Shown in pieces: positions 50,523 through 60,200 of a stretch of DNA of 64,000 nt. Under the pieces are notes generated by a model. That model was not told where the DNA came from. It worked only from the letters and a program-made list of their open reading frames with translations, and did no database searches. The stretch is from an uncultured Anaerolineales bacterium (GTDB taxonomy: Bacteria; Chloroflexota; Anaerolineae; Anaerolineales; UBA11858), in the NCBI GenBank assembly GCA_964618295.1, contig CAZTWV010000012.1, positions 929-64,928 on the forward strand. The letters are read 5' to 3'. Numbering within the stretch: position 1 is the first letter of the stretch; each line of letters starts with the position of its first letter. Made by a program: the position numbers and the translations under genes.

Positions 50523-50909
50523 ATGGATTCTAAAACAAGCAGGCAAAAAAAATTCTTTCGCTGGATAGGCATTACTCTGCTGATTGCTGCTGCTACCTAT
50601 GGATTCGCTTCCGCAAATACATTGAATATCACCAATTTATCCGGCCAGGGTTATGGTGTAAAATCAGTTTTTGAGGTCTCCGGCATCGGTTATACTCTTG
50701 ATGTGGAGAACCCCGAATATTTCACTGAAGTCCATTTTAATTTAGATGACCAGGATCAATTAGTCCATGCCGGGGTTTCGATCGAAAAACAATCGGAAGT
50801 TACCTGGGCAGATCAATGCAGAGTTGAAAAATCCGGATACAGCTGCACCTTTGAGCCAAGCATCAATGTCCTGGATGCAGATTGGCTCCATGTTGTTAAA
50901 CTGCGGTAA
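50523..50909 (+). CDS. Small secreted two-Cys protein with a SipW/TasA-type-like signal peptide (paralogue 1)
   Basis: GAGGAAGG RBS. The N-terminus is basic, followed by ITLLIAAATYGFASANTL and a ~100-aa mature part with CRVEKSGYSC. Paralogous to 53555-53938. Confidence 0.62.
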   Translation: MDSKTSRQKKFFRWIGITLLIAAATYGFASANTLNITNLSGQGYGVKSVFEVSGIGYTLDVENPEYFTEVHFNLDDQDQLVHAGVSIEKQSEVTWADQCRVEKSGYSCTFEPSINVLDADWLHVVKLR

Positions 50910-50948
50910 GCATTATCTGTGTTTTTCGGATAGAATGAGGGAAGTGTC

Positions 50949-50974
50949 TGGCGTGGGTGATTCAATCCACGCCA
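50949..50974 (+). other. Hairpin TGGCGTGG-N10-CCACGCCA after small gene 1 (no T-run)
   Basis: The stem sequence is shared with the terminator after small gene 2 (GGCGTGG/CCACGCC). This copy lacks the U-tract. Confidence 0.5.
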
Positions 50975-51066
50975 CTTGGCATATCAAAAAGGCAAAAGTA
51001 ATTACCGATTTATGATGGAAGCCGGGGAAGATGGATGGATCAACCCGTCCAGAAGGGAGAACAAGG

Positions 51067-56405: not shown

Positions 56406-56408
56406 GAT

Positions 56409-56858
56409 ATGGTCAGGAGAAATCTCAGAAACATTTTGCTGGTTCTGCTGCTCGGAATCGGAATGGTAGCGCTGATCAGTGTTTTTTCAGCTGTAGCGGC
56501 CACCAACACAGTGTCAGAATCCCGGGCAGATCTGAACTCCGCAGCGATTGATGGAAACGATCTCAAACCGGATGCCTGCAGTGGAATCAATATTCAAAAT
56601 ATTGTAGACGTTGGAGCCGGTGAAACCGGGACTGATGCTAACGACCTGATCCTGGGAACTGCCGGGAATGACTTGGTCATCCGGGGCGGAGCCGGGGATG
56701 ACTGCATCCTGGGTGGAGGGGGAAATGAAGGCTTCATCATTTTCCTTGGAATCTTCGGGGAAGAAGGGGATGATGTCTTAATTGGCGGTCCCGGATTTGA
56801 TGTCTGCCAGGGCGGTGGAGGATCAAACACATTTGTGGAATGTGAGGTTACCAGATAA
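56409..56858 (+). CDS. Small secreted protein with RTX-like Gly/Asp repeats and a SipW-type-like signal peptide
   Basis: ALISVFSAVAATNTVSESRADLN resembles the signal region of the two small proteins. LILGTAGNDLVIRGGAGDDCILGGGGNE and GEEGDDVLIGGPGFD are haemolysin-type Ca-binding-like nonapeptides. Starts 3 nt after the upstream stop. Confidence 0.62.
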   Translation: MVRRNLRNILLVLLLGIGMVALISVFSAVAATNTVSESRADLNSAAIDGNDLKPDACSGINIQNIVDVGAGETGTDANDLILGTAGNDLVIRGGAGDDCILGGGGNEGFIIFLGIFGEEGDDVLIGGPGFDVCQGGGGSNTFVECEVTR

Positions 56859-57229
56859 TTAATCTCACTGGAGTTCCTGTGAATTTCTTAAGGAACCGGA
56901 AAAAAATAATTATTATAATAATAATTGAAACAAAACCAGTGGTTAAGGAAATTTTCAGCTGAATCGATTTTATTTCTCTCTTTAAATATATCCTTTCAAG
57001 GGTAGAAAGGATTGTTTTATCGATATGATGGATGTTGAATGAGTCTGATAAAGGTAAAATGAAAAGAAAAACTAGATTAACACGGAAGAGTAAGAAAAAA
57101 CAGGTCCAGACTCAAGAAAAACCTGGAATTTAAACACCGAAAGTGGTCTTGATATGCTTCGGAGTTGAATTCTGATAATTTTATTAAACTTTTTGCGGCG
57201 GGACAGTCCGAGAAAAATGGTGATAAAAA

Positions 57230-60200
57230 ATGAAAGTACAATTTTCTAGAATTCAACCTGGAAAAAAAATGCCCAAAATCCTGCCAAACCATCGTTTGGT
57301 ATTTGCTTTAGTAAGTTTCTTTTTAGCGCTAATTTTGGTCCCGGTTGTGATTGTTTTTGCTGCGACGGTACCGGCGGAGATGAACATTCAATTCACACCG
57401 ATTGCAATTGCATCGGGGGGGACCTCGACATTGAAAGTTTCAGTCTTCAACTTGAATGCTAATCCGCTTACTAATGCGACCTGGACGGACACTTTTCACC
57501 CTGATATAGCAATAGCAGATCCTCCCAACATCAACGTCCAGAACTGCGGCAGCTATTCTTTGACTGATGGTGCTGGAGGTTTAATCGAAGCGGGGGACAG
57601 TTCCATCAAGCTGACCGGTGCTACCGTGCCGGCCCAACTACCCAGCGGGGTTCCCGGGGAATGTTACGTAGAGGTGGATGTCACTTCAACGACGCCCGGC
57701 AATTTGATCAACTCTATACCTGAGAATCATCTAGTATCAGAAACCATTGATCCTGATGGTGGTGGATCCGTGCCGATTACCAATACCACCCCGGCCAGTG
57801 CCACGCTGAATGTGATCGGGGTTGAATCACCCTCGCTGAGCAAGGCCTTCGCGCCCAACACCGTTTTTGTCGGTCAGACCAGCACGCTGACAATTAACAT
57901 TTTTAACAATGATCAGGATTACCCCTTGACCGAAGTGACCATGTTTGATGAGCTGCCGACTGCTGGAAATGAAGATATTAAAGTGGCCAGCCCGCTGAGT
58001 GCCTCATTGAACGGCTGCGGCGAAGGATCCGGCGCAGAGTTGACTGATGAGAATGGGGATCCGCTGGCTCCCGATGACACCACCATTAAGTTGGTCAATG
58101 GCACCATCGCTCCGGATTCGAACTGCACGATCACGGTCGATGTGGTCTCAATGGTGCAGGGTGCTTATGTAAATGTAATACCCAAGGATGCCCCGCTGGA
58201 TGGTTCAATCCAAACCCGGCAGGGTGTTAGCAATGAGGATCCGGCTGATGATCAGCTCAACGTCCAGGCTTTTATCATTGACAAAGAATTTGCCGAGACG
58301 AAGATAGCTGCCGGTGAGCCCACCTTGGTGAGCATTGAGATCGTCAATAACGCCACCATTGATTATACCGGCGCTGCTTTGAACGATATCCTGCCTGAAG
58401 GGCTTGTTTTCGAACCGGGGAGCGCATCACTCAGCTGCACCGATGGATCTTCTACGGCAGCTTTCGCGTATTCAGATGATACAAATCCCAATGATACCCT
58501 GGAAATGACAGGCGGAGTCCTGCCCGCAGGGACAACCTGCACAATTACGGCCACGGCCGAAGCTTTAACTTCGGTCACGGTTGGTACCTACACCAATAAT
58601 ATCCCCATCGGAGCTCTAAGTACTGTTGAAGGGGCGACAAACCATAATTTGGCTTCAGCGGATATTGAGGTGGATACTCTAGGGATTACAAAAGATTTTG
58701 CTGAAGTTACCATTCCATCGGGCGGCACCAGCGAATTGACCATCACAATTTCTAACCCGTTTTCGAAGGACTATACGGATGCTGATGGTGGGGATCCGCT
58801 CCTGGAAGATGTTTTGCCTGCCGAGTTTGAATTCGATACCAGTGTAATACCTGGTTTACAGGGAACTGGTTGTACAGGAGACCTTTCGATTGGTGGAACT
58901 AATAATAATACTCTTTTCTTGGATGGCGGTACCTTGCCGGCGAATACAGTCTGTACAATCACGGCCACTGTCAAGGCGGAATCAACAGGCAATCCGGCTG
59001 ATCCAGGCGATTACGTAAATGAAATCGCCGCAGGAAAAATAAACACAGAAGAGGGGGCGACAAACGCCTCTAAGGCCAGCGATACCATTTCCGTTCAATC
59101 ACTTGGACTGACAAAAGACTTTGATCCCAATACAATTCCCGTCGGGGGAACCAGCACACTGACCATTGAGATCATTAACAATGGGACGGATACATTCACA
59201 GGGGCAGATCTTTCGGATGAGATAACCGATACCTCATTTTACTTTGAAGCTGGAACAGCCCAAACGACCTGTATCCCAAATGGTGTCGTAGATATTTCTG
59301 CGGACTCCCAGACTATTTCTTTGACCAATGGCACGATTCCTCCGGGCGGCTGCACCATCATTGTGGACGTGACCACGGATGATAATCAACTGCCCACCAG
59401 TTACGAAAACATTATTGAAGCGGGTGATCTCATCACAGATCAAGGTGATACAAATCCGGCGGATGCCAGTGACATCATCAGCGTGGAAACGGTCACGATC
59501 ACGAAAAGTTATGGAACCGGCACGATTTCCTATCCGGAAGTCAGCACTCTGACGATCACGATTTCGAATCCAGCCAACGGCCAGGCCTTGACTAATATGA
59601 GCCTGACCGACACCTTGCCGGATGACCTGGTCATTGCAACTCCTGCAAACGCAAGCACAACCTGTAATGATTCAACACCGCCTACACCTACCTTGACAGC
59701 CGAAGAAGGGACTAGGGTAATCGAGTTATCCGATGGTTCTTTAGCGGCAGGCAGTGGGTCCTGCTCGATTCAGGTGGATGTTACCGCTTTATCGGAAACC
59801 GTTTCGGGTGATTACCCTAATACGATTGGCCAGGGGGATTTAACCTCAGGTCCTGCCGGTAATGGCCCGACAAATGGCAATACGAATACTGCCACCCTGG
59901 AAGTTGAAGCCCTTGAAGTCAGCAAAGATTTTCTGTATGAGAGCTTTCAGGCGGGGGACACCAGCAGCACCAATCCGCTGACGATCACCCTGACCAATCC
60001 CACCTCTTTGGATTATACAAACGTAAATATAACAGACAGCTTGCCAACTTCACCGGATACAGATCTGGAATTTGTTTTGGGGACGGAAAATACGGACTGC
60101 GGTGGGACTGTTTCTCTAACTGGTTCTTCACCACCCCCATATCGAACGATTGGATTGGCGGGAGGGACTCTCCCTGCAAATGGCAGCTGCACTATCACCG

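Follow-up and report, generated by a model that had tools for sequence, protein, structure and literature searches.

Signal peptidases with cognate leaders of their own are, to our knowledge, known from few systems, namely SipW/TasA in Firmicutes and TafD in haloarchaea. These two peptidases define the assembly pathways of biofilm-matrix fibres. A similar enzyme is encoded in the 64-kb window considered here (the whole stretch of 64,000 nucleotides that was analysed, from contig CAZTWV010000012.1 of an uncultured Anaerolineales bacterium), where a signal peptidase (SPase) domain, a DUF5305 domain, and an EAL domain are combined in one membrane protein. Which secreted proteins might this fused peptidase process? 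In a first-pass annotation of this DNA, two small proteins, an RTX-like protein, and a giant adhesin were proposed to share a distinctive signal-peptide C-region and to be candidate substrates, and all four N-terminal peptides quoted there were found verbatim in the sequence. A common leader is carried by the two small proteins and the RTX-like protein, and this leader is probably cognate to the cassette peptidase, which would mature the subunits of a TasA/Tafi-like surface structure. The features concerned, with lengths in amino acids (aa), are as follows.

50523-50909 (+): small protein 1, 128 aa, a diverged paralogue within the small family (open reading frame, ORF, and ribosome-binding site)
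53555-53938 (+): small protein 2, 127 aa, canonical member of the small family (ORF and family conservation)
53555-53698 (+): leader module of small protein 2, residues 1-48 (hhalign of alignment A1 against A2)
54033-56405 (+): fused membrane protein SPase-DUF5305-EAL, 790 aa (hidden Markov models, HMMs, and hydropathy)
56409-56858 (+): RTX-like protein, 149 aa (HemolysinCabind, A2, AlphaFold2 (AF2), and Foldseek)
56412-56555 (+): leader module of the RTX-like protein, residues 2-49 (hhalign of A1 against A2)
57269-64000 (+): giant adhesin, more than 2,240 aa, running past the end of the window (ORF and orthologue alignment)

A shared leader on unrelated secreted proteins

The leader consists of 45-48 residues, in which a basic N-terminus and a long hydrophobic helix are followed by [YF]-[AG]-F-A-A-x-N-T-V-P or, in its extended form, [YF]-[AG]-[FY]-A↓A-x-N-T-V-P-x-[ST]-x-A-[GD] (the arrow marks the predicted cleavage site). 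In small protein 2, residues 1-29 form the leader ahead of this site, which reads ..AAATYGFA↓ASNTVPETRAGEG. The leader of small protein 1, whose ATG is preceded by the ribosome-binding site GAGGAAGG, ends ..AAATYGFA↓SANTL, with cleavage predicted after A29 (nt 50609), and that of the RTX-like protein ends ..VFSAVA↓ATNTVSESRAD, with cleavage predicted after A30 (nt 56498). No further motif-bearing ORF was found in a scan of the 64-kb window.

Conservation was counted in the best 150 of 1,665 small-family clusters (at most 50% identity), a set obtained with a profile. The residues at the motif and at other conserved positions of the family are as follows.

Position 26: Y or F, 142/150
Position 27: A or G, 150/150
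Position 28: F or Y, 140/150
Position 29: A, 128/150
Position 30: A, 136/150
Position 31: variable
Position 32: N, 145/150
Position 33: T, 122/150
Position 34: V, 115/150
Position 35: P, 93/150
Position 39: A, 142/150
Position 40: G, 149/150
Position 42: G, 148/150
Position 48: G, 148/150
Position 49: Y or F, 150/150
Position 95: C, 145/150
Position 106: C, 145/150

The first-pass annotation had staked its proposal on conservation of the motif among orthologues, and the motif is indeed conserved, far above the mature domains, both in the 150 small-family representatives and in 44 RTX-like homologues. In the alignment of the latter (A2, n = 44), the motif takes the form ..A-x-A-A-x-N-T-V-P-x-T-R-A-D, within which A28, A31, and N33 are each kept in at least 90% of sequences. 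When the small-family alignment (A1, 30 members) was compared with A2 by hhalign, the first 48 columns aligned with 96.9% probability (E 1.9e-10), and the mature domains are unrelated. The combination of signal and motif occurs in 88 of 3,209 six-frame ORFs from related loci; all but two of these belong to the small or the RTX-like family, the two exceptions being spurious antisense ORFs. At least three unrelated mature domains carry the leader, namely the immunoglobulin (Ig)-like small protein, the RTX beta-roll, and a 168-aa protein described below.

The best cleavage register is [AG](-3)-F(-2)-A(-1)↓A(+1)-x(+2)-N(+3)-T(+4), which conforms to the -3/-1 rule in each of the three families, with +2 left as the sole variable position. 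The earlier statement that this is not an AXA type I site is therefore too strong, since [AG]-F-A↓A fits that rule; what is odd about the leader is the bulky aromatic residue at -2 together with the conserved P' side, as in TasA. The same annotation was right to set aside a lipobox and a prepilin site. Read directly, the four N-termini have no Cys and no prepilin motif, and in each of them the hydrophobic core precedes the conserved motif, with neither G↓XXXXE(Y) nor a lipobox L-x-x-C. In the subfamily of small protein 1, YGFA is kept and x-N-T-V-P is lost, a pattern which suggests that the cleavage determinant lies on the signal side and that the mature side may have a separate role.

With regard to the adhesin, its leader ends ..VPVVIVFA↓ATVPAE, which holds only F-A-A-T-V-P of the motif and misses x-N. 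The stretch VIVFAATVPAE is conserved in three close orthologues, and a profile comparison of the adhesin leader with the small family gave a probability of only 5.7%, which is not significant. The adhesin was therefore dropped as a fourth leader-bearing member, on the grounds of this profile match and the partial motif, and the 5.7% value also indicates that a generic signal does not yield a high leader-module score. Thus, the common C-region once claimed for four proteins holds for small proteins 1 and 2 and the RTX-like protein and is statistically unsupported for the adhesin.

The conserved cassette and its fused peptidase

A genome scan with one genome per species and the pattern [AV][TA]YGFAA[AS]N yielded 48 loci (designated by L-numbers), all of them in Chloroflexota and distributed over Anaerolineales, Chloroflexales (Kouleothrix, Oscillochloris), Thermomicrobiales, Dehalococcoidia (Tepidiforma), Nitrolancea, and Thermobaculum. 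After ORFs had been called with BLAST and clustered all against all, only three families proved to be conserved across them. A small-family gene is present in 48/48 and the peptidase-DUF5305 fusion lies immediately downstream, likewise in 48/48, while an RTX-like gene directly follows the peptidase in 40/48; most of the loci without one end at a contig edge, and three truly lack it. Each locus has one to three small-family paralogues. The same cassette was also found on independent metagenomic contigs, some copies being tandem-duplicated, with no Tad genes nearby. Given its type, this linkage, and the conserved motif, the fused peptidase has good candidate substrates in the small proteins and the RTX-like protein, as the first-pass annotation had proposed. 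A scan of 50250-57400 for promoters and terminators yielded nothing informative.

The peptidase part of the 54033-56405 protein (about residues 28-126) matches TIGR02228, the model of SPase I of the endoplasmic reticulum (ER)/archaeal type, with 56.5 bits (cutoff 51.85). In an alignment to human SEC11A/C, the SMEP (S42), HRV (H79), and GDNN (93-96) motifs are kept, and on this basis the peptidase is of the SipW/SEC11 type and not of the LepB type. Judged by these motifs, it is an ER/archaeal-type SPase I (S26B) that would use Ser-His(-Asp) and not Ser-Lys. A DUF5305 domain (PF17231, TafG-like) follows at about residues 302-511 (33.2 bits, cutoff 29). Hydropathy gives four transmembrane segments, at 6-24, 131-149, 185-203, and 416-434, the last two of which flank DUF5305, and the loop at 150-184 is rich in K/R (positive-inside). 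By this hydropathy profile, the ectodomains of SPase and DUF5305 face the outside of the cell, and the EAL domain is cytoplasmic. In one long-read metagenome-assembled genome, two overlapping ORFs stand in place of a single peptidase-DUF5305-EAL gene (L001 10591-12820, identical to L010 8591-10820); the split falls within DUF5305 and may be a frameshift, an assembly error, or genuine.

The EAL domain occupies residues 531-766 (55623-56330) and matches its Pfam model with 218 bits. Three of its motifs are substituted, EITE by EINR, DDFGTGYSS by DNFATDAANQ, and EGVE by QGVE, and the substrate-contacting motifs YQPI, E-x-x-x-R, N, K-I-D, and QG are retained. Among fused EAL orthologues, EINR and DNFATDAANQ are near-universal and QGVE occurs in most, with a few keeping EGVE. 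To judge from these residues, the domain is degenerate and falls short of a catalytically active phosphodiesterase. Such a substitution pattern is typical of non-catalytic receptors of cyclic di-GMP (c-di-GMP), for example LapD and FimX. Across the 48 loci, the C-terminal fusion partner is EAL in 12 and HD-GYP in 8, so that 20 carry a c-di-GMP domain, and 28 have neither. The HD-GYP domain (PF13487, HHERWDGSGYP) occupies the same C-terminal position in L012, L013, L016, L017, L020, L030, L035, and L042. The occurrence of two different c-di-GMP modules on one scaffold suggests, by analogy with LapD/LapG, that leader removal may be under second-messenger control. Literature searches for an SPase fused to EAL or HD-GYP in Chloroflexi returned no description of such a protein and only the SPase-DUF5305 fusion.

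The small family is large and unannotated. Small protein 2 has 29 homologues in a clustered protein database, none with a Pfam domain, and a profile search of 1.84 billion representatives retrieved the 1,665 clusters (50% identity) at E<=1e-3, the best 150 of which are about 104-181 aa long, mostly about 125 aa. Small proteins 1 and 2 are 30% identical in alignment A1, where the best-conserved stretch is AATYGFAAxNTVPxGxAGEGxGxISGY, accompanied by two conserved cysteines. The Cys pair noted earlier in both paralogues is real, as C95 and C106 are each found in 145 of the best 150 representatives. In the AF2 model of small protein 2 (pLDDT 83), a helix at residues 2-31 and a six-strand beta-sandwich at 51-126, which contains the C95-C106 pair, are separated by a segment (32-50) that is highly conserved yet of low confidence; the whole extension spans about residues 30-50. 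A Foldseek comparison of this model with the PDB gave only generic Ig/FN3 matches (best E 0.23), and a family-profile search of PDB sequences found no match for the small family. Pfam searches of the 30 members detected no relative of TasA, Tafi, Abp, or pilin, and no PF12389. Matches at about chance level were seen to PF04573 (SPC22; sub-threshold, E 0.045) and to PF00419 (Fimbrial; E 0.008), each in 2/30 members.

The RTX-like protein has 257 homologues and matches Pfam HemolysinCabind (PF00353), the model of GGxGxD nonapeptide repeats, with 34.7 bits (cutoff 23). Its AF2 model (pLDDT 89.6) comprises a helix, a low-confidence extension, and a Cys-containing calcium-binding beta-roll, which matches CyaA RTX block V in Foldseek (probability 0.99, root-mean-square deviation 1.2 A, 69 columns). 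The models of small protein 2 and the RTX-like protein thus begin alike, with a long helix and, between it and the folded domain, a conserved extension of low confidence. In the tandem-duplicated cassettes of L002 (5785-13492) and L024 (2037-9900), which have no Tad genes nearby, the third gene of the second copy encodes an unrelated non-RTX protein of 168-170 aa with no Pfam match, and this protein has the same leader, ..MTAFAAVNVVP..RLDD.

Proposed processing and its alternatives

Several characterized systems resemble the cassette in part. In Bacillus subtilis, the TasA cleavage site reads TWA↓AFND, which puts W at P2, A at P1', and F at P2', and TasA requires SipW for this step; it was also reported that P2 W and P2' F are poorly handled by E. 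coli LepB and accepted by the ER-type SipW (PMC10269814). The leader described here (GFA↓AxNT) likewise has an aromatic P2, Ala at P1 and P1', and Asn at P3'. [quoted passage not shown] However, the mature domain is a predicted Ig-like sandwich of about 95 aa and not a jelly roll as in TasA, the minor protein is an RTX beta-roll unlike TapA, and the peptidase is fused to DUF5305 and a c-di-GMP domain. The likeness to TasA/camelysin-type SipW-cognate signals that had been suggested for this DNA therefore stands as a positional analogy and fails as family membership, as TIGR04088 is unmatched. Membership in the SipW-cognate signal class was rejected, with the HMMs silent while a TasA control matches.

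DUF5305 corresponds to TafG of the haloarchaeal Tat-fimbriae, in which both TafA processing and the fimbriae are lost once the signal peptidase TafD has been deleted; SPase-DUF5305 fusions were noted in Tepidiforma in the same study (PMC11821415). In the Natrinema pilus, TafG was proposed to assist TafD (PMC12337348). DUF5305 has also been called an SPase I accessory subunit, with a fusion from Anaerolinea thermophila cited (bioRxiv 10.64898/2026.01.04.697558). The Tafi system (TafA/C/E, TafD, TafG) and the DUF1102 clusters of Thermococcales and Archaeoglobales share with the cassette an SPase I and DUF5305 serving small subunits encoded alongside, as well as several subunit paralogues and a distinct tip or minor protein. 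In contrast to Tafi, SPase and DUF5305 are fused here and the leaders are of the Sec type and not Tat (twin-arginine translocation) signals; the DUF1102 clusters are themselves Sec-dependent. The subunits have no detectable homology to TafA or DUF1102 proteins, and the host here is a bacterium (Chloroflexota).

AbpX loci are known to contain an SPase I, a DUF5305 accessory protein, and minor or tip subunits, and to produce calcium-dependent donor-strand fibres. They resemble the cassette in their overall logic, in the calcium theme (represented here by the RTX beta-roll), and in nearby c-di-GMP enzymes, which were noted in AbpX neighbourhoods (bioRxiv 10.64898/2026.01.04.697558). AbpX (about 163 aa) differs from the small family in that it belongs to the TasA superfamily, carries an amphipathic donor strand, and has an aromatic amino acid at position 2; the small family is shorter, begins A-x-N-T-V-P, and has no detectable similarity to it. 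In addition, the AbpX-associated SPase was described with ten transmembrane helices versus four here. In TasA, Tafi, and Abp-type systems, the fibres are donor-strand-complemented, and a minor subunit nucleates or caps them (PMC11821415, PMC9245690). The literature on Tafi, the Natrinema pilus, and AbpX contains no description of the Chloroflexota substrate families, the leader motif, or the EAL/HD-GYP fusions.

A further parallel is LapD/LapG control of the LapA adhesin, in which a degenerate EAL domain in the cytoplasm is linked through the membrane with a protease whose targets are surface or adhesin proteins; near the cassette, too, a giant adhesin is encoded. The LapD partner is, however, a separate, sequestered periplasmic cysteine protease and not a fused signal peptidase, and no HAMP or GGDEF module is present here, so that the functional analogy is entirely one of proposed roles. 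As to the eukaryotic signal peptidase complex (SPC; SEC11A/C, SPC22/23), the catalytic domain aligns and a beta-sandwich accessory ectodomain is common to both, whereas the protein described here is bacterial, is a single polypeptide, and appears to be dedicated to few substrates.

Taken with these systems, the cassette looks like a new relative of TasA/SipW and of the archaeal Tafi surface-fibre systems, and the following scheme can be proposed. Briefly, the leader, of the Sec type and with a hydrophobic helix of unusual length, would be cognate to SPase-DUF5305, which would most likely cut between the two alanines to give a common A-x-N-T-V-P N-terminus. If SipW/TasA/TapA and TafD-TafG/TafA-C-E are taken as a guide, the role of major subunit in an extracellular structure would fall to the abundant small protein, and the RTX-like protein would be a minor subunit that depends on calcium, for example a tip or nucleator. 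The conserved N-terminal extension, predicted to be disordered in the monomer, might dock subunits in a donor-strand manner, while the cytoplasmic EAL domain (HD-GYP in other genomes) could couple processing to c-di-GMP. A substrate-enzyme relation between the leader-bearing proteins and the cassette SPase-DUF5305 is favoured, with reasonable but limited confidence; confidence in strand donation as the way in which fibres form is far lower, and this idea can only be put forward tentatively. Similarly speculative is the wider model in which a c-di-GMP-gated SPase-DUF5305-EAL/HD-GYP polypeptide controls, at the post-translational level, the removal of a dedicated leader from the subunits of a new class of surface fibre, with an Ig-like major subunit and an RTX cap or nucleator.

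Several points weigh against this scheme. With the threshold relaxed to E<=10, the models TIGR04088, TIGR04089, and TIGR04090 still hit none of the four N-termini, and for TIGR04088, the check that the first-pass annotation had named, a TasA control scored 40.3 bits (cutoff 19). The small protein has no detectable fold or sequence likeness to TasA, AbpA, Tafi, or CanA, and its N-terminal extension is Gly/Pro-rich (NTVP..AGDG), unlike a classic amphipathic donor strand. As the site conforms to the general -3/-1 rule, it could be cut by a housekeeping SPase. Finally, the primary small-family copy at each of the 48 loci bears the motif by construction of the scan pattern, a circularity that does not touch the profile-based set of 150, the RTX-like family, or the extra paralogues.

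It might accordingly be asked whether these are ordinary Sec/SPase I signals, with YGFAAxNTVP conserved for the sake of the mature fold or the membrane-proximal region, cleavage by a housekeeping enzyme, and another role for the fused peptidase. Such an explanation would be in keeping with a [AG]-F-A↓A site that obeys the -3/-1 rule, with a neighbouring adhesin that has a plain V-F-A↓A site, and with NCBIfam and Pfam scans in which none of the four proteins matched a specialised signal model. It leaves unexplained, however, why the same leader and some ten mature-side residues should recur on three unrelated domains that are all encoded beside the peptidase, with peptidase linkage in 48/48 loci, and why Y26, A/G27, F28, and A29 are among the most conserved positions, which is atypical for generic signals; we consider it unlikely. 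The small protein could instead retain an uncleaved signal anchor and act as a structural SPC subunit, as SPC22/23 do beside SEC11, and not as a substrate. The continuous helix over residues 2-31 in the AF2 model would suit this role, the SPase-DUF5305 fusion has been likened to the eukaryotic SPC (bioRxiv 10.64898/2026.01.04.697558), and the sub-threshold SPC22 matches point the same way, but those matches are at chance level and a near-ideal cleavage site is conserved. Moreover, one to three paralogues per locus and an RTX-like protein with the same leader fit substrates better than stoichiometric subunits, and in studied relatives the gene adjacent to the peptidase encodes a fibre subunit (PMC11821415, PMC9245690), which makes a subunit role quite improbable.

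The genes directly upstream raise one further alternative, in which the proteins are components of a Tad/Flp-type pilus, processed by a prepilin peptidase and assembled by Tad machinery, for TadE-, TadG-, and large TadE-like genes lie there interleaved with small-family genes. Yet G↓XXXXE(Y) is missing, the hydrophobic stretch lies ahead of the motif and not after the cleavage site, the cassette occurs without Tad-like genes in about 40 of 48 genomes, and the upstream ORFs scanned (34.3-41.9 kb) include no Tad ATPase or platform genes. The Tad reading, very improbable on these grounds, was rejected, since most genomes have the cassette independently of Tad genes and a prepilin motif is lacking.

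If the cognate-leader scheme is correct, the principle of a dedicated peptidase would extend to the whole phylum Chloroflexota, whose members are plentiful in soil and sediment as well as in hot springs and wastewater sludge. A functional context would be given to the large unannotated family of 1,665 clusters, and [YF]-[AG]-F-A-A-x-N-T-V-P would serve as a simple signature for finding substrates. The EAL/HD-GYP fusions also raise the idea that c-di-GMP acts at signal-peptide cleavage, a new control point on the way to surface-attached life, which would be the first case of second-messenger control at the signal-peptidase step.

The adhesin and the Tad-like neighbours

The cassette is flanked by the adhesin on one side and by Tad-like genes on the other. 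The latter are as follows.

45751-53283 (+): lineage-specific Tad-like context (TadE, TadG/vWA, and two large TadE-like paralogues)
45751-46476 (+): TadE-like gene (ORF, NCBIfam/Pfam scan)
46489-48072 (+): TadG/vWA-like gene (ORF, NCBIfam/Pfam scan)
48152-50299 (+): first large TadE-like gene, Pro/Thr-rich (ORF, NCBIfam/Pfam scan)
51031-53283 (+): second large TadE-like gene (ORF, NCBIfam/Pfam scan)

The Tad-like genes and the adhesin are confined to about 8 Anaerolineales loci and are therefore regarded as lineage-specific additions. The open frame of the adhesin begins at 57227, and an orthologue alignment puts its start at the Met at 57269 (MPKILPNH..) and not at 57230. The protein contains DUF7933 isopeptide-type and DUF11 repeats, and its orthologues were found only in L001/L010, L006, and L019. 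In L001, the orthologue (18052-20378) also has SdrD_B and Sortase Pfam domains, and multihaem cytochrome genes lie between it and the cassette, so that the linkage is loose.

The two large paralogues (48152-50299, 715 aa; 51031-53283, 750 aa) have a TadE-like N-terminus, Pro/Thr-rich linkers, and a conserved C-terminal region. A PA14 match in the 51031-53283 protein is weak and sub-threshold (17.4 bits versus a cutoff of 24), and a 151-aa Gly/Val-rich ORF at 52890-53345 (-), antisense to the Pro/Thr-rich tail of this gene, is a shadow ORF and no real gene. Each large TadE-like paralogue is followed by a small-family gene. Three large TadE-like genes are present in L001, L011, L019, and L047; in three of these four loci, a gene of the small protein 1 type follows the first large gene, and in L047 such a gene follows each of the first two.

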